Of a stretch of 64,000 bases of DNA, positions 36,572 to 64,000 are shown in pieces. How positions within the stretch are numbered: position 1 is the first letter of the stretch; each line of letters begins with the position of its first letter. The position numbers and the translations under genes are program-made. The DNA is from Planctomycetota bacterium (GTDB taxonomy: Bacteria; Planctomycetota; UBA8108; SXIK01), in NCBI GenBank assembly GCA_965223845.1, contig CBDCXR010000004.1, positions 448,001-512,000 of the forward strand, written 5' to 3'. The notes beneath the pieces are model-generated. The model had not been told where the DNA came from, searched no databases, and was given only the letters and a program-made list of their open reading frames with translations.

Positions 36572-36763
36572 GGGAGCTGGGTGCGGTCGGGAGGCCAGCC
36601 GCGAGCACGTTCGTGTTCTCGAAGGATCCGCCTCTATAATTGACCGTTCGATTCCCGCGGGCGCGATCGTTTCGCCGCCCGCGGCTCCACTCGCGCGTAC
36701 TGCGAAGCCGTCCTGAGCTCGCGGTCGGGGCGCGTGGGACAACCTCTGACGAAGGAGATTGCG

Positions 36764-38845
36764 GTGAAGCTCGTCTGTAGCTCCCTAACCCGACTCGGCA
36801 GCTCGTGCCGCGGGCGTTCGGTGTTCGGTTTCGCGTGCGCGGTGATGGCCGTGTCGTGGATCGCCGGGTCCAGCGTGCGAGCGGAGATCGTGATCAACGA
36901 ACTGATCGCGGACAACGGCGAGGTAGGGCCGGCCGACTTCGGCGGTGGCTTCCCCGACATTCTCGAGCTCTACAACACGGGTGAAGAGGACGTCGTTCTC
37001 GGAGATCCGGATCCCGGGAAGTCCTACTACTTGTCCGACGAGTGCGAGTCGCTCGACGCGAGCGAGTGCACGTTTCGGACCTTGGGTTCGTGGCGATTCC
37101 CGAGCGGAACCGTCATCCCGGCGCAGGGATTTCTCATCGTCTACTGCGACGGCGACGCCGTGGAGGGCCTCTGCGAGCTTCACGCTTCGTTCGAGCTCGC
37201 GGCGAATGGAAGCGAGGCCATCGCGCTCTGGTCGCCGCGCGACGAGAGCGGCGCGCGCACCATCGTGAGTCGCGTCTGGCTCCCGCCGCTCGATCGCGAC
37301 GTGTCCTTCGGTCGTTTCCCCGATGGCGCCGGACCGGCGATCGTTCCCGTCGCGGAAACGTTCGACCACTTCGTCTTCAATCCGCTCTCCGAGACCACCT
37401 TCGGCAGTTGTGTCGAGACCGAGGAAGATTGTCGGGGGGCCGTGCCGCCCGGGAAGCTGCGCGAGTGTACGGGAGCTGCGAACGCCGCCGGGGGAAACCT
37501 TCCTCCGGACATCGATCTCGATTCAGACGATTTCTCGACGAATGCGCCCGCGGACGGCGAGCCGGTGGTGATCACCGCGGAAGTGCGGGACGACGAACTC
37601 CCGCTCGCCGGGAACATCGTGCGCGCGTCGATCCTCTACACCGTCGACGGCATCGACCAGCCGGAAGTCCCGATGAACCTCGTCGACGAGACGGTGCACG
37701 ATCGAGCGGACGACGGGCGGCCGCTCGATCGCTACACGCGGTGGACCGGCACGATCCCCGGCCAGCCAGCCGGGAGCGTCGTCGAGTTTCGGCTCACCGT
37801 GCAGGACGTCGGCGCGGGTTCGGCCCAGGATCCGCGGACTCTTTGTCCGCCGGACACCGGGCCGTGCAATCGCATCGGCTTCCCCGGCGAGAATTGCGTC
37901 CGCGACCCCGACAATGATCTTCGCTTTCTCTCCTGTCGCGTTCCCTATCGCTACCGCGTGGGCTACGAGCCGAGCGAAGCGCTCGCCGGGCTCCTCATCA
38001 ACGAAGTCGTTGCCACGCAGACGTCAATCATCGAGGACAAGACCGACGACGCCTGCGCGGACGACAACCCCACGTGCAAATTCGATGACTATCTCGAGCT
38101 CTACAACACGTCGACCGAAGAGATCGATCTCTCCGGGATGTGGCTCTCCGATCGGCCGTTCAACCCACAAGGATGGCCGTTCCCGGAGGGGTCGACCATC
38201 GCGGGAGGCGAGCGATTGATCGTTTGGCTCGACGGCGACGGTGGGCGCTGCCCGTTCCCGGACGAGGCGCAAGACGGCGACGGGCAGGACTGTGCGAATC
38301 CGCCGACCGATCCGGCGAGCGGGGAGTATCACACGGACTTCCGGCTGTCCGGTTCCGGCGAGCAGGTTTATCTCTACGCGAGCGCGGACGAGTCGTTCGG
38401 GCTCCTGCACGGGCTGCGGTTCGGCCTCCAGACGGAGAACGTCGCGCTCGTCCTCTGTCCCGACGGCGTGCGCGGCGGCGAGTTCGGCGTCGAGTCGGGC
38501 GGTTCCCCCGGAGCGGAGAATTCTTGCTCGACGCCCGTTTTCGTGCGCGGGGACTCGAACAGCGACTGCAGTTTCAACCTCGCGGATGCGGTCTTTACGC
38601 TGAATGCGCTCTTCGGCGGGGGTGTTCAGCCGACCTGTCTCGACGCCGCGGATACGAACGACAGCGGGAACGTCGACATCAGCGATCCCATATTCGGACT
38701 GTCGGCGCTGTTCCTCGACGGAGAGCTGCCGCTTCCGCCCGGCCCGGGCTGCCCCGGGGGCGAAGATCCAACGCCCGACGATCTCCTCGGTTGTCGCTCG
38801 AGCTGCGAGAGCGAGGAAGATTGCCCGGCCCCGATCGGCGGTTGA
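36764..38845 (+). CDS. Tandem paralog: exported lamin-tail-domain (x2) protein with dockerin-like domain
   Basis: AAGGAG SD + GTG; INELIADN...DILELYN, INEVV...DYLELYN, SPGAEN; FVRGDSNSD...DTNDSGNVDISD; colinear with the upstream paralog. Confidence 0.82.
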   Translation: MKLVCSSLTRLGSSCRGRSVFGFACAVMAVSWIAGSSVRAEIVINELIADNGEVGPADFGGGFPDILELYNTGEEDVVLGDPDPGKSYYLSDECESLDASECTFRTLGSWRFPSGTVIPAQGFLIVYCDGDAVEGLCELHASFELAANGSEAIALWSPRDESGARTIVSRVWLPPLDRDVSFGRFPDGAGPAIVPVAETFDHFVFNPLSETTFGSCVETEEDCRGAVPPGKLRECTGAANAAGGNLPPDIDLDSDDFSTNAPADGEPVVITAEVRDDELPLAGNIVRASILYTVDGIDQPEVPMNLVDETVHDRADDGRPLDRYTRWTGTIPGQPAGSVVEFRLTVQDVGAGSAQDPRTLCPPDTGPCNRIGFPGENCVRDPDNDLRFLSCRVPYRYRVGYEPSEALAGLLINEVVATQTSIIEDKTDDACADDNPTCKFDDYLELYNTSTEEIDLSGMWLSDRPFNPQGWPFPEGSTIAGGERLIVWLDGDGGRCPFPDEAQDGDGQDCANPPTDPASGEYHTDFRLSGSGEQVYLYASADESFGLLHGLRFGLQTENVALVLCPDGVRGGEFGVESGGSPGAENSCSTPVFVRGDSNSDCSFNLADAVFTLNALFGGGVQPTCLDAADTNDSGNVDISDPIFGLSALFLDGELPLPPGPGCPGGEDPTPDDLLGCRSSCESEEDCPAPIGG

Positions 38846-42325: not shown

Positions 42326-42580
42326 GAGTCGGGTCCAAGTCCGGATGCGGAGCGACGATCGGCCTTGCAGGAAACGCCCTTGATGGGCGGTTTCGGAGCA
42401 GAGTCGAACCGAGCCTGGCGGGAGCTGCCGCCCGCTTGTTCGAGGGTTGTATTTTCGGACTCTCCCGGTTCAAATCGCAACTTCGCTCTCGACCGAGAGT
42501 CCTTCGCGACGCGGTGAGGAATCGAACTCCGAGCGGTGGCGACGCCGCAAAAAACTCGCCGCGGAAACCTTGGGGGATCG

Positions 42581-44767
42581 ATGTACACCGAGCTGAAAGA
42601 ATACGCGGCGGCGAACGACCTCGATCGGTTTGAAGACCGCTGGATGGAAGCCTTGGGCGCGGGAGACCTCGAGTCGTCTGCGATGGAGGCTCTACTCGAT
42701 GCGGCCGAGGTGGCGCTCGATCGGCAGGATTCGACCCATCGACTGGCGACTCTTCTCGAGCTCCTCTGTGCCTGCATCGCCGAAGATACGACCGCGAGGG
42801 TGACGCTGCGTCTCTTTTGGCATCTCCTCCGGTTCTTCCCGGAGAATCGTTCGTACCTGAACATCTTCTGCGAGGCGTACGTCCAGGTGTACCCCGTCGC
42901 ATCGCCGGAGCGAGCGTTTTTCGACGCCGCTTCCGTCGCGCAGAGCTCGGACGTCGCCGGCTCGCTCGCTCGACTCGACAGCCTCCTTCGCTATCGCGAG
43001 GGGGCCTTCGTCTTCCACCGCTCCGGGTGGGGCGTCGGACGGGTTCTTAGTGTCGACCCCTTCCTCAAGCAGGTGCGTGTCGACCTCGAGGAGAAGAAAG
43101 ACCACCGGATCGCGATCGACGTCGTCGATTCGATTCTGGATTTCCTCGAGCCCGATAGCTTCCAGGCGCTCCTCCTCTCGAACGTCGAGGGGCTCCATCG
43201 GCTGCGTGACGAAGATCCGGTGGGGCTCGTGACCAAGGTTCTCGACGCCTTCGGAAACCCGCTCGGCGTCAAGGATATCAAGTCGCATCTCGTACCGGCG
43301 ATCGTACCGACGAAGGACTGGACGAAGTGGTGGAACAAGACGAAGGCGCTTCTCCGCGACTCCGGGTATTTCCGCGTCGGTGACCGCGCGCCGCATCGGG
43401 TCGAGAAGCTCGAGTCGGCGATCAGCTACGCCGACGAGCTGATCCGCGACTACTACGCCTCATCGTGGCTCGAAGCACGCAAGGTCGCGAAACAGGCCGC
43501 GCGCAAGTCGGGCGGAGAGTACAAGGATGCCTGGGAGAAAATTCGCCCGCACCTTCTCGAGCTGAAGGAAGGCGATGACGTCTCCGTCGCGATCGACGCT
43601 GCGACCATTTACGAGCGCGGTGAGATCGGCGGCAGCGGCGTGCTCGCCGAAGTGCTCGCACGCTTCGGTGTCGAAAAGCTCGCCGACGCGATTCAGGGGC
43701 TGCCGGGCCCCGAAGCGCAGCGACGGGCCGCAAACGCGCTCGTGGATGCCCGTCCCGAAGACTGGCAGAACGTCGCGCGCGCGCTCGTTCTCGGACGGAG
43801 CGATGTCTTGCGGAACGTCGCGCTCGGTCTTCTCGAAGAGCGAGCACCGGAGGCCGCGCTCGAAGTGGTCGGCTCGGTTGCGGCGAACCCGCCAGCGGCG
43901 TTCGAGGCGTTTTGTTGGCTGCTGAACGTCCACGTCGCCGGATCGGATCGACCCGGCCTCGAGCCGTTTCGCCAGCGGACCTCGAGGGAGCTCGTGCGAA
44001 TGCTCCTCGACCTCTGCGACCACCAGGAGCATCGAGCGAGCCGAGTCGAGCGAACCGTCGTGAAGGAGGCGTTCGGCCGGATTCAGCAGTGCCTCGGTGC
44101 GAAGGACGGAGACTTTTTCGCCGAGGGGATTCGAGGGTTCAAGAAGTCGGAGCTCGTCGCTCTCTACTCGCGCATCGTCAACTACGACGACATTCTCCCC
44201 GATCTCAAAGCCGAGCTGCTCGGCCGTATCAGCGAGCAGGCGCCCGAGCTCGAGCAGGAAGAGCCGGCGATGCCGTGGGAGGAAAACTGCATCTACACCA
44301 CGTCGGCCGGACTCGAAAAGCGCCGCGAGCAGTTTCGCGAGATCATGGAAACGAAGCTCCCGAAGAACTTCGAGGAGATCGGTCGCGCAGCGAGCTTCGG
44401 CGACCTCTCGGAAAACGCCGAGTACACCGCGGCGCTGGAGACGCGCGATCAGCTCACGCGGCAGGCGAAGCAGATCGAGGAGGAGCTCGAGATCGCGAAG
44501 ATCATCGAGCCCGCTTCGGTGAATGCGGAGTCGATCGCGCTCGGCACGCGCGTTTCAGCGTCGGAGGTCGAGAGTGGCGAAAACAAGATCTACACCATTC
44601 TCGGTCCGTGGGACGGCAGCCCGGAAGAAGGCGTTCTCAACTACCATTCGCCACTCGCTAGGGCTCTGTTCGGACGGCGCGCGGGCGAGCAGGTCGACAT
44701 CGAGCTGCCAGGCGGGTCCTTGAGCCTTAAAATCGAAAGGATCAGCTCGCACTTCGACGAGGAGTGA
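42581..44767 (+). CDS. greA: GreA/GreB transcription elongation factor with large N-terminal extension
   Basis: C-terminal FGDLSENAEY, YTILGPWD, YHSPLA; N-terminal HRSGWGVG and WTKWWNKTK motifs, as in Chlamydiae/spirochete-type long GreA. Confidence 0.85.
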   Translation: MYTELKEYAAANDLDRFEDRWMEALGAGDLESSAMEALLDAAEVALDRQDSTHRLATLLELLCACIAEDTTARVTLRLFWHLLRFFPENRSYLNIFCEAYVQVYPVASPERAFFDAASVAQSSDVAGSLARLDSLLRYREGAFVFHRSGWGVGRVLSVDPFLKQVRVDLEEKKDHRIAIDVVDSILDFLEPDSFQALLLSNVEGLHRLRDEDPVGLVTKVLDAFGNPLGVKDIKSHLVPAIVPTKDWTKWWNKTKALLRDSGYFRVGDRAPHRVEKLESAISYADELIRDYYASSWLEARKVAKQAARKSGGEYKDAWEKIRPHLLELKEGDDVSVAIDAATIYERGEIGGSGVLAEVLARFGVEKLADAIQGLPGPEAQRRAANALVDARPEDWQNVARALVLGRSDVLRNVALGLLEERAPEAALEVVGSVAANPPAAFEAFCWLLNVHVAGSDRPGLEPFRQRTSRELVRMLLDLCDHQEHRASRVERTVVKEAFGRIQQCLGAKDGDFFAEGIRGFKKSELVALYSRIVNYDDILPDLKAELLGRISEQAPELEQEEPAMPWEENCIYTTSAGLEKRREQFREIMETKLPKNFEEIGRAASFGDLSENAEYTAALETRDQLTRQAKQIEEELEIAKIIEPASVNAESIALGTRVSASEVESGENKIYTILGPWDGSPEEGVLNYHSPLARALFGRRAGEQVDIELPGGSLSLKIERISSHFDEE

Positions 44768-50960: not shown

Positions 50961-52313
50961 ATGTTTCGCCGTTCAGAATTATTCCGTCGGTTCGCGGCTA
51001 ACGCAAAGCTCGGCGCGTTCGCGTCGTGCGTTCTCGTTGCTTGCGCGGGTGCGCGGGAACGGCCCGTTCTGATCGAGTTCGACGTGGTCACCGCTTCCAG
51101 TTCAACGGACGCGGACCTCGACGACTCGGACGAAAACGAGGTCGAGGTGGCTGCGGAGAGAGCGCGAGTGCGACTTTACTTACGCGGGCCCTTCTGTCGA
51201 GTCGAAGCGAGCGTTCGGAGCTCGGCCAGCGCGTCCTCGGGCGGTGCGGCGCCCGCGGCGGTGGCGATCTACGACGATGAGACCAGGGTCGTGTGGGAAG
51301 CTCGTCGCGGGCGAGAATTCGAGCGGCGCGGCTACGACGTGCTCGACTACGACGCGGCCACGCGAAGGCGGCGCGGTCGGATCGATCTCTACTCGCTGGC
51401 GATCGAGCGGCGTGGCGAGTGGGAAGGCACCTGGTCGGATCTCAACGGCTCCGGGCAGTCGCGCGAGATCGATCGGGCTCGGTTCGGCGGACGTCCGGCG
51501 CGCGTGGTTCGCCTCGCGGTCGAGCCCGGAGTCTATTGGGACGTCACGCTCGCCGCCGGCGACGTGGCCCCGGTCGACCCGGCGTTCGCGACGCCGAAGA
51601 TCCTGAGCGGTGTGTTCGGCGTCGCGCCCGGGCGAGCGGGCCGACTCGCGACGGCGCTCCGAGAGCTCCCGGTCGCCGTCGACGGCTACGTCTTGGGGGA
51701 CGACGGCATCGAGTCGGCGTTCGCCGCGACCCTCTTCGATGTCCGACCCGCTGCGCCGGCATCCGACTCCCTCTGGCCGGACGACGCTACACTCGCGCGC
51801 CGCGAGGAACTCGATCGCCGTCTCTCCTCGACGGATGTGCTCCTCGATGCGGTGTCGCGTCCGGACGCTCTGTCCACGCCGGTGACACTCAGCGAGCTGT
51901 GCCTCCGCATCGCGGCGCGGATCGAAATCGACGACGTGACGCGGGTCGTCGATCTCGTCGCCGGCGCGGAGCACGAATCCGAACGCGTCGAGCTCGCCCG
52001 CGCGCTCCTCCGCCGATTCCCGCGCCGGGCTTGGGTGGCCCTGCGGCCGAGTCTCGACTCGCCTCGGATCGAGCTGGCCGCGGGACTAGTCGAGGCCCTC
52101 ATCGCCGAGCGCCATCCGGCCGCACGCGCAAGTCTTCTTCGCGTTCTCCGCCAGCGCGACCGCTGGGCGTCCGATGTGCCACCGGAGGAGATCGAGCGCT
52201 GGGCACTCGGCCATCTCCGCGTCCTGAGTGGCATTCCTCTTGCACGTCTTCTCGAGCAGCTCCCCAGCGGGGCAGACGCCGAGCTCGAGACGTGGCTCGC
52301 ATCCGAGGAGTGA
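50961..52313 (+). CDS. Hypothetical exported protein (possible lipoprotein) with C-terminal HEAT-like helices
   Basis: LVAC lipobox candidate; beta-rich N-terminal half, helical C-terminal half; start uncertain. Confidence 0.5.
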   Translation: MFRRSELFRRFAANAKLGAFASCVLVACAGARERPVLIEFDVVTASSSTDADLDDSDENEVEVAAERARVRLYLRGPFCRVEASVRSSASASSGGAAPAAVAIYDDETRVVWEARRGREFERRGYDVLDYDAATRRRRGRIDLYSLAIERRGEWEGTWSDLNGSGQSREIDRARFGGRPARVVRLAVEPGVYWDVTLAAGDVAPVDPAFATPKILSGVFGVAPGRAGRLATALRELPVAVDGYVLGDDGIESAFAATLFDVRPAAPASDSLWPDDATLARREELDRRLSSTDVLLDAVSRPDALSTPVTLSELCLRIAARIEIDDVTRVVDLVAGAEHESERVELARALLRRFPRRAWVALRPSLDSPRIELAAGLVEALIAERHPAARASLLRVLRQRDRWASDVPPEEIERWALGHLRVLSGIPLARLLEQLPSGADAELETWLASEE

Positions 52314-52477
52314 TTCCGGAGTCCTCCCGGACGCCCGTCCCGACGGCGCCGTCGTCGCTCGCTCGGGCGCGGTCCGCGATGTCGATCGCGAACCGCGTGC
52401 GTTGCGACAGAAGGACCACTCACTCCGGCGCGGCCCTCCGCGGCGGACTCGAACAACCGCAGCATCAGGTGAAAGAA

Positions 52478-53572
52478 ATGTCCAAGACCGCGAAGAAGGG
52501 CGCCTCCTCTTCCGCCACGGCGACCGCCGTTCGGCTCGGCATCGACCTCGGAACCAACAGCTCCGTCGTCGCTGCGGCGCACGACGGGAAGCCCGTCAAG
52601 ATCGAGGACGACGTCGTACGCTCAGTGGTAGGCTTCCCGAAGGCCGGAATCATCCCCGGGATCCTGCCGAACGACTCCGAGGTTCTCTTCGGCGACGAGG
52701 CGATCGACTACCGGCTCCACCTCGACCTCAAGTGGCCTCTCAACGAGGGTGTTGTCGACGATCTCGAAGTCGCGCGCACCTTCGCGGGGCACCTCCGCAG
52801 CATCGTCGACAAGACGGGAAAGAACACGCTCTGGGGTGTCGTCGGTGCGCCCGCGAACGCCACGGCCGAGCAACAGAAAGCGCTTCGCTCGACCATGGCG
52901 GGCGTCCTCGAGCGGCTCCTGGTCGTTCCCGAGCCGTTCCTCGCGGCGATGGGACTGCGCGACGACTCGGCGTTCACCGAAAAGGGCGGCGACCCGACGA
53001 AGCACTCGCTGATCGTCGACATCGGCGGCGGAACCACTGATCTTTGCTTGGTCCGCGGCTATTTCCCGACGGCGGACGACCAGATCAGCTACCCGCAGGC
53101 TGGCGGTCACATCGATCATCTCTTCTCCGACGCGCTCGGGCGCCGCTATCCGGATCTGAAGCTCACGCCGGTGACGATCACTCAGCTCAAGGAAGAGCAC
53201 TCGTTCGTCCCGGGATTCGAGCGCGAAGCGAAGGTGAAAGTCTACGTCGACGGCCGCCCGCAGCTCGTCGACTTCACGGCGATCATCGCCGAAGCGTGCG
53301 GCGCGATGGTGCCGATCATCGTCGACGGGATCAAAGAGCTTCTCACGCGCTGCGATTCCGATTCGATCGTGAACGTGATGGAGAACATCATCGTGACCGG
53401 CGGCGGCTCGCAGATCCACGGGATCACCGAGAAGATCCAGGAAGTACTCGTCGCTGACGGGTACGACTGCGCCCGAACGATTCGCCCCAGCGACTACAAG
53501 CGCCTCGTTGCTCAAGGCGCCCTGCGCATCGCCGAGAACGTACGCGACGAGCAGTGGCAGGTGCCGATGTAG
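52478..53572 (+). CDS. MamK-like actin-family ATPase
   Basis: GIDLGT, SVVGFPK, FGDEA...LDLKWPL.EGV, VGAPA, VPEPFL, IVDIGGGTTD, KEEHSFV, NIIVTGGGSQI. Confidence 0.82.
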   Translation: MSKTAKKGASSSATATAVRLGIDLGTNSSVVAAAHDGKPVKIEDDVVRSVVGFPKAGIIPGILPNDSEVLFGDEAIDYRLHLDLKWPLNEGVVDDLEVARTFAGHLRSIVDKTGKNTLWGVVGAPANATAEQQKALRSTMAGVLERLLVVPEPFLAAMGLRDDSAFTEKGGDPTKHSLIVDIGGGTTDLCLVRGYFPTADDQISYPQAGGHIDHLFSDALGRRYPDLKLTPVTITQLKEEHSFVPGFEREAKVKVYVDGRPQLVDFTAIIAEACGAMVPIIVDGIKELLTRCDSDSIVNVMENIIVTGGGSQIHGITEKIQEVLVADGYDCARTIRPSDYKRLVAQGALRIAENVRDEQWQVPM

Positions 53573-53999: not shown

Positions 54000-54027
54000 A
54001 TTATAGGGAGGGCGTTCGCGGGGTCAA
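54000..54027 (-). promoter_or_regulatory. Near-consensus sigma-70 promoter for rpmH
   Basis: Minus strand TTGACC-16 nt-TATAAT; the -35 overlaps the kdsD stop codon. Confidence 0.7.
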
Positions 54028-55046
54028 AGGCGAAACTGCCCGCGGCCCAGGATGTCGTGAAGGTGGACGATTCCCTGCGGTCGCCCGTGGGGATCGACGA
54101 CCGCGAGGGCGGTGATTCCGTGGACTTCCATGAGGCGGAGGGCGTCTGCGGCGGACGCTTCGGGCTCGACGAGCTTGGGTCGCCGCCCCATGAACGAAGA
54201 GACGGGTTCTGCGAGCAGCGAGTCCGCGGCGCCCGGCTCCGCCGAATCTCGCGCCGCGAGAACTGCTCGACGGATGTCGCCGTCCGTGATGATCCCGCGC
54301 AGTCGACCGTCGCGGTCGACGACGAGGGAGAGCCCGAGGTTGTCGCGCCGGGTCATCTCGTCGAGGGTGTCGCCGACGGTCGCGCTCTCCTCCACTTTCG
54401 GCATCGACTCACCGGAGCGCATGAGATCGCGGACGAGGTGACGAAGCCTCTCGCCGAGCGAGCCGCCGGGATGGAATCGGAGGAAGTTCTCGCGGGTGAA
54501 TCCGCGCCGTTCGGAGAGGACCATCGCGAGCGCGTCACCGACCGCGAGCGTGACCGTCGTCGACGCCGTCGGTGCGAGTCCGAGGGGGCAGACTTCGCGC
54601 TCGACCCCGACGTCGAGCCAGAGGTCGGCGGAACGCGCGAGGGCCGACTCGCCGTTCCCGGTGAGCGCGATGATCCGCGCGCCGATCGTTCGGGCCGCCT
54701 CGGTCACCGCCAGGACCTCCGCCGTCTCGCCACTCGCCGAGATCGGCATCAGCACGTCGCCCTCACACAGCATCCCGAGGTCGCCGTGGAGCGCTTCCAC
54801 GGGACGAAGGTAGAAGGCGGGAGTGCCGGTCGACGCGAATGTCGCTGCGATTTTCTCGCCGATCGTGCCCGACTTGCCCACGCCGGTGAGGGCGACCCGT
54901 CCGCGGTGATCGAGGAGCGTTTCGACGACCGTCGAGAACGCCTCGCCGAGCTGCTCGCTCGTGCGCAGGATTGCCCGCGCCTCCTCCTCGAGGATGCGGC
55001 GGCCGCTCGCGACGGCGTCCGTTGGCGGTGCTTGGCGTTCGGTCAT
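54024..55046 (-). CDS. kdsD: Arabinose-5-phosphate isomerase (KpsF/GutQ, SIS + CBS)
   Basis: TGVGKSG, STGTPA, EALHGDLG, LAPTAST, FHPGGSLG, GIITDGDIRR, HLHD. Confidence 0.92.
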   Translation of the reverse strand: MTERQAPPTDAVASGRRILEEEARAILRTSEQLGEAFSTVVETLLDHRGRVALTGVGKSGTIGEKIAATFASTGTPAFYLRPVEALHGDLGMLCEGDVLMPISASGETAEVLAVTEAARTIGARIIALTGNGESALARSADLWLDVGVEREVCPLGLAPTASTTVTLAVGDALAMVLSERRGFTRENFLRFHPGGSLGERLRHLVRDLMRSGESMPKVEESATVGDTLDEMTRRDNLGLSLVVDRDGRLRGIITDGDIRRAVLAARDSAEPGAADSLLAEPVSSFMGRRPKLVEPEASAADALRLMEVHGITALAVVDPHGRPQGIVHLHDILGRGQFRL

Positions 55047-55357: not shown

Positions 55358-58300
55358 ATGACTGCAGCGACCGTTCCGCCCGCGCGCGGCGATTCGAGGG
55401 TGATTCGATACGCCCACGAATGGCTCCGGCCGGCCGCCGTGTGCGTTGCTGCGGTGTGCGGGGCGATTCTCGCGGGATGCGATTCTTCGTCTCGTTCCTC
55501 CGGCGTGCGCGCTGCCCTTCGGATCAACGAGGTGATGGCGCGGAACAGCTCCACGGTTCTCAGGGACGACTCGGGGCGGCCGATCGTCCAGGACTGGGTC
55601 GAGCTCTACAACGACGGCCCGGAACCGCTGACGCTCCAGGGCTACAGTCTCACGGACAACCCGAGGCGCCGCGGGCGCTTCCGCTTTCCGCCGGGCGCGG
55701 AGATCGCCCCGGGCGAGTTCGTCGTCGTCTTCGTCTTCAATCGCGACCGCTGCGAGGAGCGGTGCGACGACCGCCTCGCGACTTGCCTCACCCCTCGACC
55801 CGGCGAAGACGAGCCCTCGCAGGACGACATCGCCGAGTGCGAGCGCGCCTACGATACTTGTCTCGAGTCGTGCGAGCCGGTCGGGTTCATTGCCGATTTC
55901 GGGCTCGGTGGATCGGAACGCATGTATCTCTACGACGGCGACGCGCTCGTCGATCAGGTCGGCGTAACGGAGATCCCGCCCGACGTCTCCGTCGGCCGAT
56001 TCCCGGATGGATCCGGTGGCTTCGAAGTGATCTACGCGGGGCCGACTCCGGGAACGGGCAACCGTCCCGCCGGAGTGCCTCCGCCCGCGATCTCCGCTTC
56101 GCTCAGTCCCGAGGCGTTGATTCCGGACTGCGGCGAAGACGTGACTCTCAGCTTCAGCGTCAGCGTCGAGACGGCGGACGTCGAGGCGGTCGATGTCGTC
56201 GTCGAGCTCGCCGACGTCGCGCAGTGCGGCGACCTCGTTTCGGACGAGGATTTCGCGCTCGCCGTCGAGCCGGAGTTCGTCGAAGCGGTGACCGGAGAGC
56301 CGTTCGAAGTGCCCGATCTCAACAACGAGCTGCGTACGGTCGAGCCGACCGTGTTCACCTATTCGGCGACCCTCCCGGGATCGCCGTGCGGGACGACGCG
56401 GCGCGCGCGGATTCGGGCCCGCGCGGACGAGGTCGAGACCGTCGAGCGTCTCGGGTGCTTCACTTGGGCGGAAGACCAGAGCCTCGCGCCGGTTCGCATC
56501 AACGAGTACGTCCCGCGGAACACGGAGCTCGTATTCACGTACCAGCGCGCGCGGTTCATTCGTGCGGGTCAGATGGATCCCGATCCGCCCACCCCGGCGT
56601 CCGATTGGTTTGAGCTCGTCAACTACGGCGACGCCCCGATCGATATTTCGCGCTTCGGGATCGCGAGCCTCAACGATTGGGAAGAGTTCTTGAGCGGCCA
56701 GGTCGACGTCCTCGACACGTGGACGCTCGTCGACCCCGATCCTCTCTCCGAGGAGACGCCCGAGCAGGTCATCATCGACCCGGGTTGTTTTCTCGTCGTT
56801 CTCGCCGACAACGACGGCGGGAGCGACGCGGATCAGTTCCGCCAAACCTATCGCCTCTTCGATCCTGAGATGTTCCGCGGCGACCTCGGTTGTCAGCTCA
56901 CCGATTCGAGCGGCGACCCGTATTTTTTCTCCACCGACTTCGGCCTCGACGCGACGACGCAGAATCGCATCGACGGTTTTGTCTTCGTCGACGAAAACGG
57001 TCGCCGACTCGACGCGGTCGAGCTCGCGTTCGAGAGCATTCCGCCGGATCTGGTCGACGAAACCGGCGCCGTGCCGACCGTGCGCGCGAACGTCGCCCTC
57101 GGGCGACTGCCCCTTGCCGACGAAACCTTCAGTGAAGACCTCGTGCCGGGCGAGTTTCTCTGCGTACCGACCCCGGGCGCGGACAATACACTCCTCTGCG
57201 ACGTCCCGCCGCGCTTCGATCCCGATGTGCTCGTTCTTCCCCGGAACCCTCGGGCCGGCGAGCCCGTGGCCGTCTCCGGGAAGGTCAACTTCGACCTCGA
57301 TACGACGAGCGTCGACCAGCGCTTCGAGGTCCACTATCGCGTCGAGCGCGCCGGCGGCGGTGCGTCGGACGAGGTGCTCACTCTCGCCGACGACGCCCTC
57401 GTGCTCGAAGAATCCGCGGACCAGACGGACGCCGCCGCCGCGAGTCGACTCTACGACTTCGTCGCCACGTTCCCGGGATTCGAGAGCGGAGACTTCGTGA
57501 CGTTCTTCTGCTTCGCGCAGGACCTGTCCGACGGTGGCGACAACTCGGAGGTGTTCTTCACTGAAGACGACACCCCGCGCAGCTCGATGCGTTTCGTCGT
57601 CGGATTCGAGCCGCCGGCGGACCACCCGCGGATCACCGAAGTGCTGCCGCTCAATCAGACGATCGTCTTGCCGCCGTTCGTCGACGTGCCGATGCCACCG
57701 ACTCCCGACTACGCCGAGATTCACAACCCGAGCGGGGAAGCTTGGGATCTCAGCGGATACTACCTCGCGCAGGTCGACCCGACGAGCGAGCGGCGCAGCG
57801 TGCTCTCTCGTCCGCGCGAGTGGCGGTTTCCCGACGGGACGCTGCTCCCGGCCGGCGAGTCGCTCCCGCTCTACTTCGGTGGGGTCGGGGAGGAGTTCCT
57901 CGAGGTCGATTTCAACCTGGGGTGTCCCGAGTCGCTGTTCCTCATCGCTCCGGACGATGCCGCGCGCGGCGCGCACTCGGTGATCGACTCGGTCGCGTGG
58001 GGACTGAATCTATGCAACGATCTCCCCGATCGTTCCTGGGCGCGCCCCTGCGAGAGTTTCGATACGTTCGCAGTCGTCGACCCGTCTCCCGCCGAGCTCA
58101 ACTCCGCTGCCTGGCTGCCGCCGCTCTTTCACTCCGCGTATCATACGGACGTCCAGAACGTCGCGGCACTTTGCGTTTCTCCGACGTCGTTTGTGACGCT
58201 GAACGCGCACGTCTTCGTCGACGCGGCGCTCGCTGCCTCGCTCGAGTCTCAGCGCTCCGAAGACGTGATCGACTCGGCGGTGTTCGTCGTCGACTACCGG

Positions 58301-59221
58301 GACGGAAGTGATCCGCGCTTGATCCCCGCTTCGCGGCTCGATGTGACGTGCCCCGCCGCGGGCGACTGCGTCGAGGCCCCCGAGGGCTACCGGAGCGTCC
58401 GTCTGTCGACGCTCCTCGACGATCTCTCGCAGCGATCGATCGGCGCGTCCATCGAGTACGAGATCCTCGCGACGACCGCGTGCGGGCGGATGGTCGCGGG
58501 CGGTCCCTTCAGTGTCGGAACGAGCGCCGGCGACAAGCCGGCGGTCGTGATCAACGAGATCAACCTCGCCGCGCCGCTCCCGGGCGCGCCGGACGAGCCG
58601 CGGGCCTGGGTCGAGCTTCTCAACCTCGAGGGCGGCGAAGTCGACGCTTCCGGGATGTTCCTTACCGATGACCTCCAGGTATCGCAGAAGGTCGTCGTAC
58701 CGGACGGAACCACGCTCTCGGCGGGCGGATTCGCAGTCGTTCCGATCGACGGCGCGAGCGGAATGGATCTCACGGGTCGGGACGGTGAGCTCGTCCTCAT
58801 CGACTCCGTTGCGAGAGGAAGCTGCGGGGTGGACTCCTTCGCGTTCGATTATCGCGAGCGAGAGCCATCGACCTCGCTCGGCCTGCTTCCCGACGGAATG
58901 GGAGACCCGGTTGAGCTCGAGCGCCCGAGCCCCGGTGCGCCGAACGACAGCTCGGCCCCCGTATTCCTCCGCGGCGATGCGGACGAGGACGGGAGGCTCA
59001 CCGTGTCCGACATGATTCGGATCCTCTCCATTCTCTTCGATGACGATGCGGAACGACCGGCGTGCGACGACGCGCTCGACGCCGATGACGACGGTCGCAT
59101 CGCGGTGAACGACTCGCTCTTCATCGGCAACTTTCTCTTCCAGGACGGTGACCCGATCCCGCCGCCGTATCCCGAGCCCGGACCCGATCCGACGCCGGAC
59201 GACCTCGAGTGTCGTCCTTAG
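55358..59221 (+). CDS. Large lipoprotein with four lamin-tail-like domains and C-terminal dockerin-like domain
   Basis: Lipobox LAGC; INEVMARN/DWVELYN, INEYVPRN/DWFELVN, ITEVLPLN/DYAEIHN, INEIN/WVELLN, each closed by a TPG/SP..N motif; FLRGDADED...DADDDGRIAVND. Confidence 0.8.
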   Translation: MTAATVPPARGDSRVIRYAHEWLRPAAVCVAAVCGAILAGCDSSSRSSGVRAALRINEVMARNSSTVLRDDSGRPIVQDWVELYNDGPEPLTLQGYSLTDNPRRRGRFRFPPGAEIAPGEFVVVFVFNRDRCEERCDDRLATCLTPRPGEDEPSQDDIAECERAYDTCLESCEPVGFIADFGLGGSERMYLYDGDALVDQVGVTEIPPDVSVGRFPDGSGGFEVIYAGPTPGTGNRPAGVPPPAISASLSPEALIPDCGEDVTLSFSVSVETADVEAVDVVVELADVAQCGDLVSDEDFALAVEPEFVEAVTGEPFEVPDLNNELRTVEPTVFTYSATLPGSPCGTTRRARIRARADEVETVERLGCFTWAEDQSLAPVRINEYVPRNTELVFTYQRARFIRAGQMDPDPPTPASDWFELVNYGDAPIDISRFGIASLNDWEEFLSGQVDVLDTWTLVDPDPLSEETPEQVIIDPGCFLVVLADNDGGSDADQFRQTYRLFDPEMFRGDLGCQLTDSSGDPYFFSTDFGLDATTQNRIDGFVFVDENGRRLDAVELAFESIPPDLVDETGAVPTVRANVALGRLPLADETFSEDLVPGEFLCVPTPGADNTLLCDVPPRFDPDVLVLPRNPRAGEPVAVSGKVNFDLDTTSVDQRFEVHYRVERAGGGASDEVLTLADDALVLEESADQTDAAAASRLYDFVATFPGFESGDFVTFFCFAQDLSDGGDNSEVFFTEDDTPRSSMRFVVGFEPPADHPRITEVLPLNQTIVLPPFVDVPMPPTPDYAEIHNPSGEAWDLSGYYLAQVDPTSERRSVLSRPREWRFPDGTLLPAGESLPLYFGGVGEEFLEVDFNLGCPESLFLIAPDDAARGAHSVIDSVAWGLNLCNDLPDRSWARPCESFDTFAVVDPSPAELNSAAWLPPLFHSAYHTDVQNVAALCVSPTSFVTLNAHVFVDAALAASLESQRSEDVIDSAVFVVDYRDGSDPRLIPASRLDVTCPAAGDCVEAPEGYRSVRLSTLLDDLSQRSIGASIEYEILATTACGRMVAGGPFSVGTSAGDKPAVVINEINLAAPLPGAPDEPRAWVELLNLEGGEVDASGMFLTDDLQVSQKVVVPDGTTLSAGGFAVVPIDGASGMDLTGRDGELVLIDSVARGSCGVDSFAFDYREREPSTSLGLLPDGMGDPVELERPSPGAPNDSSAPVFLRGDADEDGRLTVSDMIRILSILFDDDAERPACDDALDADDDGRIAVNDSLFIGNFLFQDGDPIPPPYPEPGPDPTPDDLECRP

Positions 59222-59528
59222 CGCGATTTGGGGGATGTTTTGCGGTTGGTCGTTGCTCCGTCCGAAGACCTACGTCTATAACTTTCGCTACTGGAACCTC
59301 CGCCGCGGGCACGCCCCCAGCGGGACCCTCCGGTAATCTCCTCCCCCGCCAATCAAATCAGCGCCCCTGCCGATATCGACGGCACGGTACACCGTGGCCG
59401 ACGACGCTGTCGCCGATCGGTATTTCCTCCGAATCGACGATGCGATCGGTCCCTCGCGTGCAGTTACGGTGCCGCTCGCTGGGTGTCCCGCACCTAGCCT
59501 ATCTGGTGATCGAGGTCGACCGTTGAAC

Positions 59529-61085
59529 GTGAATCCACTCCACTCACTCCGTTCCGTGACCAAGCTCGTGATCGTCGCGCTCGTTCTCACGAGCGTGACC
59601 GCTCACGCACAGACCCGGTTTCCGTCTCCGACGCAGCGCATCCGCGATCTCGAGAAGCGACTCACCGAGCGGATCGACGAGCTCGAAAAAGAGGTCGAAC
59701 GCCTCGAGGACGAGAAGCTCGACGCGAAGGGGAAAAAGGGCGGCGACCTATTTTCGGACGGGATCGTCACGATCGGCGACGTCGAATTGAAGCTCGGCGG
59801 CAAGATCGAGCTCCTCTACATCGACACGGACAGCGGCAGCGATGCGGTCTTCGGACGCGCAGATGAGCCGGATCCGCACTTCGAGCTCCAGCGACTCCGG
59901 CTCGCGCCTCGGCTGCGATTCAACCGCCACATCGAAGCGGCGGGGCAGATCGACCTCAAGCCGATCGAGGGACGTCTCACGCTCAAGGAAATGACGGTGC
60001 GCCATCGGTACGAACCGAACTGGTGGCTGCGCTCCACCGTGAGGATCGGGCTCGACGACCGGTTCATTCGTCCGAATCGGAGAACGAAGACGTATCCGCT
60101 CGTCGGAAACGCGTTCTGGCGCGACGAGTCGCTCGGAATCCAGTGGGCGCTGCGGATCGGCGACCCCGATGGACCACCGAAGGAGAAGAAGAAGAAAAAG
60201 AAGAAGGACGACGAAGAAACCGTCGACGTGAGCCACGAAGGCGGCACCGAAGCCGAAGACCGACTCGCGCGCATCGACGCGCGTGCGGAGTACTTCGAGG
60301 ATTCGGAGCCGAGTGTGTTCGATTTCTCGCACAACCCGGGTGCGCTCACATTCTTCGTCTCGCTCAATCAGACTTCGGTTCTCAACGAGAACGAAGTCGG
60401 CTTCGACGGCGCGGCGTTCAACGAAATCGTTCAGGACGATCGCAACCTCGACGGCGATCTCGCGATCAGCGAAGTCGGGTTCGGTCTCCGCTACGGGCGC
60501 GACTTCGATTGGCTCGGGGACCTGTCGATCCTCGGCTTCTTCTACGTCGACAGCCTCAACAACGATTCGCGCGACTTCCTCCAGCAGGATCTCACCGTCC
60601 GCGACAACGGGGGCGTCGCGCTCGCCGGCTACGGCGACTCGCGTTCACGCGACAGCAACAAGTACGGAGTCGGTCTAAACTACTTCCTTCCCGCCGAGAC
60701 GCTCATCGGACGCTGGGTGGACACGCGCGGTCGCGACGGACTCCGCATCCAAGGTCAGTGGATCCGCGCGGAAGACGGCGATCTCAAGCGAAAGGGTTGG
60801 TACGTCATGGGATCGTACCGTTACTCCTTCCGCGAGCGGCTGATCGCGGGGCGCTACCTCCGAAGCGTCGAGCCGCTCGTGCGCTACGGCGAGCTCGATA
60901 CGAACCTCGGGCCGGTCCCATCGCTTCCCGGGACCTGGGATCGCGAGCGTCTCGTGTTCGGCCTCATCACCGAAGTGACCGACGAGGTCTTGTTCAAGAT
61001 CGAGTACGCGATCAACGAGGAGGACACGGGCGTTCGGAGCGTCGACAACGACGAGCTGATGGTCGAGCTCCTCCTCCTCTTTTGA
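59529..61085 (+). CDS. Outer-membrane beta-barrel (porin-like) protein
   Basis: Signal peptide (AHA-Q), short N-terminal coiled coil, alternating beta strands, GWYV..SY, EPLVRY, FKIEY, terminal Phe; start uncertain. Confidence 0.7.
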   Translation: MNPLHSLRSVTKLVIVALVLTSVTAHAQTRFPSPTQRIRDLEKRLTERIDELEKEVERLEDEKLDAKGKKGGDLFSDGIVTIGDVELKLGGKIELLYIDTDSGSDAVFGRADEPDPHFELQRLRLAPRLRFNRHIEAAGQIDLKPIEGRLTLKEMTVRHRYEPNWWLRSTVRIGLDDRFIRPNRRTKTYPLVGNAFWRDESLGIQWALRIGDPDGPPKEKKKKKKKDDEETVDVSHEGGTEAEDRLARIDARAEYFEDSEPSVFDFSHNPGALTFFVSLNQTSVLNENEVGFDGAAFNEIVQDDRNLDGDLAISEVGFGLRYGRDFDWLGDLSILGFFYVDSLNNDSRDFLQQDLTVRDNGGVALAGYGDSRSRDSNKYGVGLNYFLPAETLIGRWVDTRGRDGLRIQGQWIRAEDGDLKRKGWYVMGSYRYSFRERLIAGRYLRSVEPLVRYGELDTNLGPVPSLPGTWDRERLVFGLITEVTDEVLFKIEYAINEEDTGVRSVDNDELMVELLLLF

Positions 61086-61445
61086 GCCGTCGAACCGCGC
61101 GCGACGCCCCGGTCCCGACGGACGGACAGCCTCGTCCCTTATCGGAAGCCGGGTCCGGAGCCCCGGGCGTCGATCGTCCGTTCGGACGTCGTCTGTTCTG
61201 ACCGCCGCGCCCGAACATCGGTCCGCTTCGAAGAAGAATTCGTGACGGTTTCGTGTGCAGAGGATAAAAATGGAGGCGCGTGTTTCCTCCCGGTGCGGCG
61301 CCGATCGGCGCTCCGGAGGAATTCGCCGGAGCTGAGGTGGGCCGCTCCGGCGGCACCGCGGGGCGTGGGAGATGTCGTTGGAGGGCCTCCGAGTCAGGCT
61401 CGGTGGACGGTGGAGACGGGGCGGTGATTCACAGGATCGAGACGA

Positions 61446-62309
61446 GTGCCCGCCTTTCGAACCGGTCGCCGCGAGCACAAGTATGAGCTCTCCCCGGCGG
61501 TCGCCGCGGCTCTTCGCGCCGACATCGCTACGCGGCTCCCTCTCTACTCGTACATTCCGGGCCGCACGGAGACCTTCGTGTCGACCGTCTACTTCGATAC
61601 GGTCGATCGCGTTCTCTTTCGCCGCGCGGAGCGTTCGTTCGACGACAATCTAAAGATCCGGGTGAAGGAGTACTTCTACCCGGTCGGGAATTCGGCGAAC
61701 GGGCGGAGCGCCGGGGATGAGCGGATCGTTCGGCGCGAGAACGAGACCATCGAGGGCGGCTTGCTCGTCTCGCCGACCTGCTACGTGGAGCTCAAAGAGC
61801 GAACCGGCGGTGTCGTCACGAAACGTCGGCTGGCACTCCCTAAGGCGCAGGTGCCGCGCTTGTTCGCCGGCGAGGACGTCGCCCCGTTCATCGAGGGTGT
61901 GAACGGCGTCGGCACCCACGGCGCAGGTGTCGCGTCGACCTACTCGCGGCTCTGTCGCGAGCTGAGTCGAGCGCGCGTCGAGTGTTCGTCGATCGTCGTC
62001 TACCACCGCGTCGTCTACCAAGAGTCCGAGTCCGATCTCCGGATCACGTTCGACGACGCGATTCGAGTGTACGCACCGCGTTCGGATCTCTACGATCGGC
62101 ATTCCGCCCTGACTCCCGCCGTGCTCGGGGAGCCGCTGCGACGGCTCGACAAGACGATTCTCGAGATCAAGTGTCCGAGAGAGTATCCGGCCTGGCTCAA
62201 GAGCACCTTGCGGCGCGTTTCTACCAAGCGGCTCTCGAAGTTCACGTCGAGTGTTCGACTCGTCCTCAAATCCGGGAGTCGGCGCCCGGGCGAGGCTGGG
62301 GACGCGTGA
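61446..62309 (+). CDS. VTC-domain (polyphosphate polymerase-like, CYTH/TTM fold) protein
   Basis: RREHKY, STVYFDT, KIRVKEY, ELKER..G...KRR, RITFD, ILEIK, SKF. Confidence 0.85.
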   Translation: MPAFRTGRREHKYELSPAVAAALRADIATRLPLYSYIPGRTETFVSTVYFDTVDRVLFRRAERSFDDNLKIRVKEYFYPVGNSANGRSAGDERIVRRENETIEGGLLVSPTCYVELKERTGGVVTKRRLALPKAQVPRLFAGEDVAPFIEGVNGVGTHGAGVASTYSRLCRELSRARVECSSIVVYHRVVYQESESDLRITFDDAIRVYAPRSDLYDRHSALTPAVLGEPLRRLDKTILEIKCPREYPAWLKSTLRRVSTKRLSKFTSSVRLVLKSGSRRPGEAGDA

Positions 62310-62611
62310 GCCATCGCGCCTGAAATCACGGTGTTTCTATCGACATCGACGGCGCTATGTCGTAAATCTGTCCTTTCGTCGGTTCGCCTCGCCACTCTCC
62401 GAGCCCCTCCCCTCGAGTCGATTCGACGGACGATTCCTCACCGCGAAGTTCCGCTCGCACGACCGACGCTCCGCGTCTCCTTCGCGCCGTCGAGATCCGG
62501 CCGGCGCGGTGAGACGGATCACGGTGAGTCGCCGCCGCGCGCCTGCGACCCACGAAGCGCTCGCGGCTGCCCGCGATTCGAACTGCAACGCTGACCGAAC
62601 CAAAAGAATCC

Positions 62612-64000
62612 ATGGCCCAGCCCGACGCGGCACCGCCGCCAGTGTTCATCGACTTTGAAGGGATCGATGGGAGCGGCAAGACGACGCTCTCCAATCGACT
62701 TGCCGCGTTTCTCGAGGAGAAGGGAATCCCGGTCCATCACGCGCGGAGCGGCGGTGTCTTTCGCTCAGAGATCTCGAAGGAAATCCGCACCCTGACGCGG
62801 GCGCCGCGCTTCCTGCGAATGAGCGATATCACGGAGCTGATGCTCTACGTCGCTCGCGACACGCAGATGATCGACGAGTTCATCCGGCCGAAGCTTCTGC
62901 CGGGTCACGTCGTGTTCAGCGATCGTTACCTCTACTCGACCATCGTGCACAGCCACCACGCGCGGGGAGTTCCGAGGGAGCAGGTCGACGCGGTGCTCGA
63001 CGTCGCAGCGCGCGGCCTCTGGCCGGATATCGTGATCTACAGCGACGTCGACCCGCTGACGTCGCGGGTGAGAAAGAAGATTCAAAAGGTTCGCGACCGA
63101 CGGCCCCTCGGGGACTTCGGGCGGAAGGGGCTGATGGGGATCGGGTTCCGCGAAGAGATGCGGAACGGCTTTCTCAAGCTCGCCGAAGAGGATCCGGACC
63201 GCTGGATCGTCATCGACAATGCGAACAGCACGATCGAGGAGTCGCTCCAGCGGATCTTCGAACGTGTCGCGACGGTGCTCGAGAGGAAGGGCTACGCCCA
63301 GCTCGAAGATCCGCACTGGGCTGATCTCTCGTCGCCGCGCGAGCGTCCTCAGACTCGTCTCCGGCGGCGCGTGGAGGAACTCCTCGCGATCGAGGACGAC
63401 GCGGCGCGGAGGAGCGCGGCCTACGATCTCTTCTACGAGGAGCTGCGCGCGCTCGCCGACGAGAATCCCGGCTATGTCGGGCTCTATCTGAGCGGGGTGG
63501 CGACGCCCGAGGCACACGAGCTGCGCGAGCGGATTCTCGATCGCGAACCCGCGCTCGTCGCATTCGGTCTGCAGGGCGTGCGGACACCGGAGTCGATGGA
63601 GCTCCGAGAGAAGCTGAAGGATTCGCAGCCGCACTACGTCGCGCGCAGTCTCTCCGGATTCGCCGAAACTCCGGAGGTTGTCGCGATGCGGGAGGCGCTC
63701 GCCTCCGTCGCTCCCGAATACGTGGCGCTCACCGTGCGCGGGGACGACACGCCTCACGCCTGGGAAATCCGCCGGCAGATCGGAAAGAACGCCCCGCGGG
63801 AAGTCTTGATCAGCCTCCGCGGCCTCGATGTCGACCTCGCCTGGGAGTACCGAGACAAGTGGTCGAAGGAGCGGCTGCTGCCGGCGCTTCTCGAGAGTCT
63901 AGGCGGTATCGACACGGAGCGTGCGTGGCGCTGGCGGGATGAACTCTCGGCGATGTACCTACCGTGGGTCCTGATGAGCCTCCGCGGCGTGATGTCGGAC
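62612..64000 (+). CDS. Thymidylate-kinase-like P-loop kinase fused to ~27-aa tandem repeats; 3'-truncated by window edge
   Basis: Manual translation: FIDFEGIDGSGKTT, ELMLYVARDTQ, FSDRYLYS, WPDIVIY.DVD, RWIVIDN, then repeats; frame open to 64000; not in the ORF track. Confidence 0.85.
   Translation, partial: MAQPDAAPPPVFIDFEGIDGSGKTTLSNRLAAFLEEKGIPVHHARSGGVFRSEISKEIRTLTRAPRFLRMSDITELMLYVARDTQMIDEFIRPKLLPGHVVFSDRYLYSTIVHSHHARGVPREQVDAVLDVAARGLWPDIVIYSDVDPLTSRVRKKIQKVRDRRPLGDFGRKGLMGIGFREEMRNGFLKLAEEDPDRWIVIDNANSTIEESLQRIFERVATVLERKGYAQLEDPHWADLSSPRERPQTRLRRRVEELLAIEDDAARRSAAYDLFYEELRALADENPGYVGLYLSGVATPEAHELRERILDREPALVAFGLQGVRTPESMELREKLKDSQPHYVARSLSGFAETPEVVAMREALASVAPEYVALTVRGDDTPHAWEIRRQIGKNAPREVLISLRGLDVDLAWEYRDKWSKERLLPALLESLGGIDTERAWRWRDELSAMYLPWVLMSLRGVMSD
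63467..64000 (+). repeat. Protein-level ~27-aa tandem repeats (six complete plus a partial seventh)
   Basis: PGYVGLYLSGVATPEAHELRERILDRE / PALVAFGLQGVRTPESMELREKLKDSQ / PHYVARSLSGFAETPEVVAMREALASVA / PEYVALTVRGDDTPHAWEIRRQIGKNA / PREVLISLRGLDVDLAWEYRDKWSKERL / LPALLESLGGIDTERAWRWRDELSAMY / LPWVLMSLRGV. Confidence 0.8.

Follow-up and report, generated by a model that had tools for sequence, protein, structure and literature searches.

A Planctomycetota variant of the VTC-DUF4956-CotH gene set with a Tmk-like kinase fusion and an OprP-like porin

What might a bacterium make, and where might it send it, when the genes of a surface lipoprotein, an outer-membrane channel, a relative of the yeast polyphosphate polymerase and a relative of thymidylate kinase follow each other on the same strand? 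The question is raised by a stretch of 64,000 nucleotides from a Planctomycetota bacterium (GenBank assembly GCA_965223845.1, contig CBDCXR010000004.1, forward-strand positions 448,001 to 512,000; G000:C4:448001-512000 in our numbering), which is here called the window. The source genome has 7.9 Mb on 4 contigs and about 66% G+C. Between a KpsF-like gene and the window end lie four plus-strand genes, which encode a lamin-tail-domain (LTD) lipoprotein, a porin, a VTC enzyme and a Tmk-like kinase fusion, all of them where an initial annotation, made from the letters alone, had placed them. That annotation saw in them a candidate system that makes polyphosphate (polyP) or another phospho-polymer, exports it through the porin and binds it on a calcium-binding surface scaffold, with the kinase as a supplier or recycler of nucleotide. 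We consider the locus to be a lineage-specific, remodelled VTC-DUF4956-CotH set, to which part of the Planctomycetota has added the Tmk-like kinase/solenoid and the OprP-like porin, with a putative role in the synthesis and export of a polymer. As a whole, this reading has a probability of roughly 0.45. Its parts differ. That the locus belongs, in remodelled form, to the VTC-DUF4956-CotH set, and that VTC, kinase and porin are truly linked, can be said with high confidence; the polymer-export mechanism is tentative and, taken by itself, somewhat unlikely.

The linkage comes first. With the window's VTC as query, homologs were found in 23 of 41 relatives, the source genome counted, and 18 loci were fetched. 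Sixteen of the 18 show the succession (LTD)-porin-VTC-kinase, then a convergent HEAT-repeat gene and a Ser/Thr kinase gene; the other two are VTC paralogs elsewhere. The full order LTD-porin-VTC-kinase is kept across the taxonomic order to which the window belongs, and porin-VTC-kinase across its class. Within the class, identity is highest in the kinase domain (60-86%); the other genes range lower, from KpsF (54-68%) to VTC (36-45%), the porin (27-54%) and the LTD protein (27-45%). Among 26 related loci, each from another genome, VTC directly adjoins the kinase fusion in 24. It is directly upstream in 23 of the 26, with gaps of -44 to +183 nt, counted from gene starts that follow a simple rule and may err by a few codons; the two frames overlap in five of these 23, all in distant classes. 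In locus L096 VTC follows directly downstream of the kinase, and in L089 it is separated from the kinase by CotH and porin genes, at a position 5.2 kb upstream. The co-location in other genomes on which the initial annotation had staked its proposal is thus confirmed, as is the recurrent linkage of VTC with the kinase-repeat family, the porin and the LTD protein. All over the phylum, distant classes included, the genes of VTC and of the kinase fusion form a tightly coupled pair, and three distant lineages as well as the whole of the window's class have the porin gene in the same operon.

VTC itself is more widespread than its partner. It occurs in 110 of 401 sampled genomes of the phylum, the kinase tail in 18 of the 401 (the same set by protein and by profile query), which implies that the kinase fusion has been added to some VTC loci only. 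A tail profile from a closer alignment of 11 sequences found 17 loci, all of them titled Planctomycetota, Planctomycetia or unnamed metagenome-assembled genomes. A further set comprises 20 other VTC loci of the phylum that lack the kinase fusion. No more than 9 kb away, 19 of them have DUF4956 and 9 have CotH; neither kinase fusion nor porin is found in any of the 20. In general the core consists of VTC and DUF4956, often with CotH as a member, and kinase fusion and porin are add-ons of a sub-lineage of VTC loci.

DUF4956 and CotH also sit inside kinase-fusion operons of other lineages, and the locus is therefore to be seen as a Planctomycetota variant of the VTC-DUF4956-CotH set. The gene orders vary: DUF4956-CotH-VTC-kinase-CotHx4-porin in L088, VTC-CotHx3-porin-kinase in L089, VTC-kinase-DUF4956-CotHx4-porin in L090, VTC-kinase-DUF4956-CotH in L091 and L092, and VTC-kinase-CotH in L093-L095. 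In the window's own class, L060 has porin-VTC-kinase-DUF4956. Many of the intergenic gaps in the distant operons measure about 10 nt. Their CotH proteins start with lipoboxes, followed by Gly-rich linkers, and are for this reason regarded as extracytoplasmic lipoproteins; the LTD protein of the window is likewise a lipoprotein. In the operon-encoded DUF4956 proteins an MgtC-like membrane part is joined to a soluble domain at the C-terminus, in which the motif GLGSFVRFRT occurs. In the three loci of the taxonomic family f76, a conserved gene of about 355 codons without a Pfam match stands directly upstream of VTC (L092:6782-7846, L093:4516-5592 and L094:6437-7495) and possibly belongs to the module as well.

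Where are DUF4956 and CotH in the source genome? The initial annotation had seen neither in the window, and a Pfam scan of the examined part agrees. It had further supposed that the cluster probably runs on past 64000, a prediction that fails for this genome, since neither family turns up after the kinase stop at 64384. Fifty-eight nucleotides behind this stop comes the convergent HEAT-repeat gene, then a Ser/Thr protein kinase, UbiA, a UbiX-type flavoprotein and UbiE, and the genes read beyond 64000 include no DUF4956 or CotH. The expected link with these two families stands for the kinase-fusion operons of other lineages; as a forecast of what lies downstream here it does not. Genome-wide, nothing reaches the DUF4956 cut-off of 30.6 bits. 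A gene with 24.3 bits is, however, encoded on the minus strand at C4:3343062-3343898 (L114:8063-8899), 2.83 Mb from the window locus and between BamA-like and MutS2-like genes. Its product of 278 residues has the same layout as the operon-encoded DUF4956 and the motif GxGxxxRFRT. CotH has 70 matches elsewhere in the genome, most in open frames of 1000-2000 residues (e.g., C4:4784693-4785754 and C4:1370898-1371938). It is unusual for this atypical kinase family to be expanded so far. In the window's order, DUF4956 and CotH have dropped out of the locus, and the LTD lipoprotein stands in the corresponding place.

Conserved gene order can, of course, also keep together what does not work together. 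On this account the four genes would be functionally unrelated neighbours, held in place by nothing but the conserved order among relatives. The flanking KpsF-like, HEAT and Ser/Thr kinase genes are indeed also syntenic within the class, the spacers within the cluster measure 301, 360 and 302 nt (the initial annotation had said about 300 to 360), the LTD tail is generic (see below), and loss of VTC in one genome, G003, leaves the rest undisturbed. The adjacency of VTC and kinase and the operon membership of the porin persist, however, in classes that do not share the synteny of KpsF, HEAT and Ser/Thr kinase, and the overlapping frames do not fit unrelated neighbours either. We therefore regard this explanation as very unlikely.

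The VTC gene (61446..62309, plus strand) encodes a stand-alone cytoplasmic triphosphate tunnel enzyme of 287 residues. It matches PF09359 with 79.7 bits at a cut-off of 23 and is single-copy in a genome-wide search. A profile of 20 VTC proteins aligns with yeast Vtc4 (3g3q) over the whole domain (E 1.2e-23), and all 10 significant PDB matches of this profile are Vtc2/3/4 chains. K200, K281 and K458 of Vtc4, which according to Hothorn et al. (2009) are reportedly important for catalysis, align with K12, K117 and K265, which are invariant or nearly so in the 20 sequences. R264, R266 and E426 align with the family-invariant R72, K/R74 (K74 in the window) and E240; in yeast, the triple mutation R264A/R266A/E426N impairs the complex catalytically (PMC9911596). 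With the catalytic residues of the common Pfam domain retained, the enzyme looks catalytically intact. It differs from Vtc4 in being a soluble protein without SPX domain and without a fused transmembrane domain, and its partner in the membrane is DUF4956 in its relatives, as opposed to a Vtc1-type protein in yeast. In G007 (L055:2756-12159, on contig C7), a VTC paralog (252 residues, 106.7 bits) lies downstream of genes for a hybrid histidine kinase and for two response-regulator proteins, one with SpoIIE and STAS and the other with HATPase domains; a protein that weakly matches CAP12/Pycsar TIR-like is encoded near it.

The kinase gene (62612..64384, plus strand) extends 384 bases beyond the window. 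Its full product of 590 residues is a fusion of a Tmk-like P-loop kinase (residues 1-225) and an alpha-solenoid of 365 residues. The fusion exceeds the cut-off of the dTMP-kinase equivalog TIGR00041 of NCBIfam (93.6 versus 83.25 bits), and public records label the whole family of 550-600 residues as 'dTMP kinase'. Yet it is not the only one of its kind in the cell, as it would have to be under the objection that the initial annotation had raised against itself, namely that the kinase might be the sole canonical tmk. A separate tmk frame of about 210 codons is found at C4:727099-727686, upstream of a holB-like frame; it matches Thymidylate_kin with 144 bits and contains REPGGT, DRFLWSSAAYQG and AYQG. 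The five other fusion-holding genomes tested all have a separate tmk frame as well (125-177 bits), four of 213-232 residues and the fifth, in G097, within an open frame of 670.

The fold of the fusion is that of the bacterial enzyme. The AF2 model is of good quality by its scores (pLDDT 90.1, pTM 0.86), and residues 9-224 superpose on Thermus thermophilus Tmk with a VIA Z of 22.3 and a root-mean-square deviation (rmsd) of 1.7 A over 182 residues, while PPK2 reaches a Z of only about 11. The P-loop (G17-K23), R45, E75, A81-R82, D104-R105 and the lid residue R154 are invariant in 20 of 20 aligned fusion proteins; P-loop, DRY motif and lid arginine are thus common to both. The pocket is not. The Gln of the base-reading AYQG motif is said, from work on S. 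aureus TMK, to bind thymine. AYQG is present in Aquifex Tmk; at the same place the window protein has VHSH, and distant members have L-L-A. An insertion of about 12 residues in the lid (GDFGRKGL) is conserved. Thus the fusion differs from bacterial Tmk in the replaced AYQG, the lid insertion, the solenoid and its status as a second copy beside the tmk-holB gene, and it is linked to VTC, not to holB (VTC is missing in one of the 26 related loci, G003). The fusion is a paralog of tmk, with a probably altered substrate pocket, and not the housekeeping tmk.

The solenoid is built from about 11 helix hairpins (residues 250-576) with a period of about 27 residues and a conserved AW.LR in each, and it matches no Pfam family. 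The nearest structures are a proteasome Rpn-type protein (Z 13.9), CpcE/F (Z 9.8) and alphaRep (Z about 9), values in a range that is uninformative for helical repeats, the matches being generic repeat proteins. A role of the tail as a CHAD-like binder of polyP was considered and dismissed because of its net acidic charge. The Arg conserved in each repeat could be structural, as it can be in HEAT-like repeats. Among 1.84 billion proteins the tail profile found 533 representatives, most of them 540-600 residues long, with the tail at about 240-560 and fused to Tmk. One member of 627 residues, P0020, bears the label of a Pseudomonadota metagenome-assembled genome, all other labelled members being Planctomycetota; mis-binning or an occurrence outside the phylum are both possible. 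Some representatives are larger proteins, of 950-2400 residues, in which the same AW.LR repeats of about 27 residues recur many times together with transglutaminase-like core domains (P0008, P0016, P0051, P0065, P0073, P0074, P0081, P0136 and P0152). Complex prediction for kinase fusion and VTC, with two alignments, gave a score of 0.00 in two runs, which is evidence neither way.

Two cytoplasmic enzymes that are so tightly coupled might also do without any polymer. They could form a nucleotide or small-triphosphate pair, a triphosphatase or cyclase with a kinase that controls a pool or a signal, and the envelope genes would then be separate neighbours. The triphosphate tunnel metalloenzymes (TTMs) take many triphosphate substrates (PMC4641920, PMC9582702), and the plant proteins TTM1 and TTM2 likewise pair a tunnel enzyme with a P-loop nucleotide or nucleoside kinase. 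In TTM1 the tunnel domain is inactive, packs on the kinase and may regulate it (PMC9582702). The likeness has limits: the plant kinase is UCK-like, the tunnel domain is of the CYTH type, and both are part of one fused, mitochondria-anchored chain, whereas the window pair is encoded by two genes and its tunnel residues are intact. The VTC paralog of G007, with its two-component and SpoIIE neighbours, would suit this view, as would the persistence of the kinase without VTC in G003. On the other hand, the VTC profile is much nearer to the Vtc4 polymerase than to other solved TTMs, with Vtc2/3/4 chains as its only significant PDB matches, DUF4956 accompanies VTC in 19 of the 20 other loci, and in the same operons about 10 nt separate the porin gene and the genes of the CotH lipoproteins from their neighbours. 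This packing argues for an envelope-directed process. A purely cytoplasmic, polymer-free pair appears rather improbable to us.

The third component faces the outside. The porin gene occupies about 59523..61085 (plus strand); its reading frame is open from 59394, and the likely start is TTG 59523 or GTG 59529. The product has a signal peptide that ends with AHA|QT, a periplasmic coiled coil, a barrel of the 16-strand type and a last residue Phe. It belongs to no Pfam family, and a PDB sequence search with its profile yielded nothing above chance. Its AF2 model, a barrel plus N-terminal coiled coil, has an overall pLDDT of 65.9, the barrel strands mostly reaching 75-90. Foldseek ranks OprP (2o4v, E 1.7e-11) first and OprO (E 2.1e-11) second, and the top match in VIA-align is again OprP (Z 23.8, rmsd 3.6 A, 318 aligned residues). 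The phosphate- and diphosphate-specific channels of P. aeruginosa are thus at the top of the structural matches by two methods and over the whole barrel, at 13-16% identity, though general porins come close behind. The window porin is unlike OprP and OprO in its N-terminal coiled coil and in a long poly-Lys/acidic loop. The helix 79-112 is reminiscent of the stalk that trimeric porins have in the periplasm; one of these, DcaP, is itself among the structural matches. In the Atlas, the nearest named set includes a cluster with PF07396 in 19% of its members, which can serve as a lead only. In OprP and OprO, an arginine ladder and a lysine cluster line the channel; candidates for such residues are R223, R243, R350, R466, R476, R497, R517 and K198, which are conserved in the family alignment, and a basic loop reads RFIRPNRRTK. 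By its model, the barrel protein is most likely a porin, and loop and conserved arginines suggest a predicted preference for anions.

OprP and OprO are uptake channels induced under phosphate limitation. This raises the possibility that the transport runs inward. The porin would admit phosphate, pyrophosphate or phosphorylated nutrients caught at the surface by the lipoprotein, the kinase would re-phosphorylate salvaged nucleotides, and VTC would store the surplus in the cytoplasm as polyP. The barrel's closest solved structures are in line with this, as is a kinase that scores above the dTMP-kinase equivalog cut-off. The kinase, however, does not share the AYQG motif with the canonical tmk of the genome, PPK1 and PPK2 already serve storage, and Pst- or Pho-type genes were not seen at the locus. 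Moreover, the deepest-branching operons, L091-L095, have VTC, kinase and CotH (with DUF4956 in L091 and L092) and neither porin nor LTD protein; the core function therefore has to be something other than uptake through the porin. Scavenging of phosphate or nucleotides is, in our view, an improbable role for the locus as a whole.

The LTD lipoprotein is encoded by the first of the four genes (55358..59221, plus strand), with a GGAGG upstream of its ATG at 55358 and a lipobox LAGC after a hydrophobic stretch. It matches Pfam LTD (PF00932) with 104.7 bits at a cut-off of 34.3, in 3 scoring stretches, and INE/ITE motifs at residues 85, 410, 788 and 1094 (in the numbering of the frame that opens at 55271) mark the starts of four LTD-like modules. 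The last residue of its tail is a conserved Cys. Syntenic orthologs (27-45% identical) have lipoboxes in their N-termini, and the position of the gene is conserved across the window's order. A CotH domain hidden in this protein was sought in the window protein and 4 orthologs and was not found. The tail carries two DxDxDG loops, which justify the word 'dockerin-like' of the initial annotation; a dockerin proper it cannot be called, since Dockerin_1 (PF00404) scores 12.8 bits (E 0.14) at a cut-off of 22.9, and 21.6 and 19.8 bits in orthologs. A second LTD protein of 703 residues with the same tail type is encoded 17 kb upstream of the cluster (36734-38845, plus strand; Pfam LTD 64.3 bits).

How could these parts work together? 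They form a set that reaches from the cytoplasm to the surface: two cytoplasmic enzymes as a coupled pair, an inner-membrane protein that is unlinked here, lipoproteins and a porin. The lipoproteins, which are extracytoplasmic, are CotH in relatives and the LTD protein here. In the reading that we prefer, VTC would polymerise phosphate from a nucleoside triphosphate in the cytoplasm to polyP or a related phosphoanhydride chain. As partner enzyme or (regulatory) subunit of VTC, the kinase fusion would handle the nucleotide product or set the substrate, and the solenoid may be the docking scaffold. The DUF4956 protein of the inner membrane, in the source genome the unlinked one, might pass the product across this membrane and the anion-type porin across the outer one, and the lipoproteins would use or hold it at the surface. 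The mechanism is drawn by analogy with two known cases: yeast VTC couples the synthesis of polyP to a membrane channel (PMC9911596), and the TTM1 tunnel domain packs on its kinase (PMC9582702).

A number of observations weigh against this reading. DUF4956 and CotH are not at the locus in the source genome. The genome has both PPK1 and PPK2, so that ordinary polyP does not depend on VTC. In G003, which belongs to the same family and is assembled as one contig, LTD, porin and kinase are retained, and no VTC was found by PF09359 or the window's VTC protein; the kinase can thus persist without VTC. General porins trail OprP by only about 1-2 Z units (Z 22.9-21, with a model of pLDDT 65.9), and none of 16 members of the porin family matches Porin_O_P (PF07396) at E up to 10. 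The direction of transport fits the data either way. The solenoid tail, with 48 K+R against 56 D+E, is net acidic and unlike a polyP-binding surface. The LTD protein as query had no match in the f5 loci or the distant loci, and its tail (58934-59218) has 275 tblastn matches genome-wide at E < 1e-3. The tail is a common C-terminal module of the organism's secreted proteins, not a dedicated binding scaffold, and looks like a general sorting or anchoring module; the 'Ca-binding surface scaffold' of the initial annotation is weakened accordingly. Finally, there are the spacers of 301-360 nt. A scan of the locus returned no promoter-like site and, in the spacers, no terminator-like site, which is a sign of co-transcription neither way. 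The Rfam scan of the locus (E up to 1) gave a single match at chance level (Hrs13, 18.6 bits versus a gathering score of 52), and the public sequencing runs that hold the stretch are four DNA runs from one study, with no RNA run among them.

Is the set new? Its core is not. CotH, a 'poly-phosphate polymerase' (i.e., VTC) and DUF4956 are described as an accessory set that streptococci, clostridia and bifidobacteria have beside their pel loci (PMC7112168; PMC12345266). Pel-dependent aggregation of S. intermedius is lower in mutants of the DUF4956-type and the CotH gene (PMC12345266). The same three families are found with the kinase fusion in Planctomycetota operons; CotH is extracytoplasmic in both settings, and DUF4956 has the same MgtC-like membrane part and C-terminal soluble domain. 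There are differences, too. No pel genes were seen at any of the Planctomycetota loci read, and the Planctomycetota form adds the Tmk-like kinase/solenoid fusion and, in some lineages, the porin. The window locus has, in addition, lost DUF4956 and CotH and has the LTD lipoprotein instead. Literature searches found no printed description of the VTC-Tmk-like-porin arrangement, the operon maps in S4/S5 of PMC7112168 and S6/S7 of PMC12345266 excluded. The VTC-DUF4956-CotH set is thus already in print, though uncharacterised; the Tmk-like fusion and the porin are, by these searches, new as members.

The surroundings of the cluster can be dealt with briefly. The KpsF-like gene with SIS and CBS domains (54024-55046, minus strand) diverges from the four genes. 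Farther upstream, a GreA/GreB-type factor bears an N-terminal extension of about 580 residues (42536-44767, plus strand), and a frame of 759 residues (51293-53572, plus strand) matches MreB/actin-like ATPases in its C-terminal 300 residues.

What, then, does the locus tell us? Bacterial VTC genes with their DUF4956 and CotH neighbours are widespread; a loose connection with Pel-dependent aggregation is all that genetics has so far shown for them (PMC12345266). To this set the Planctomycetota variant adds parts with a readable biochemistry, a nucleotide-kinase-like enzyme translationally coupled to VTC and an anion-porin-like channel of the outer membrane. The label 'dTMP kinase' in the records of the family of 550-600 residues sits on a paralog with what is probably an altered substrate pocket. 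With this module one can also ask directly whether a polyphosphate polymerase-translocase of the VTC type exists in bacteria. One may go further and imagine the kinase/solenoid as an obligate subunit of a VTC machine that makes a phosphate polymer in the cytoplasm and threads it via DUF4956 and the OprP-like porin to the surface, where it would serve CotH kinases or LTD lipoproteins as phosphoryl donor or ligand. This is a distinctly long shot. If true, it would be the first envelope-spanning route of polyphosphate export in bacteria and would answer how secreted CotH kinases obtain their phosphoryl donor.

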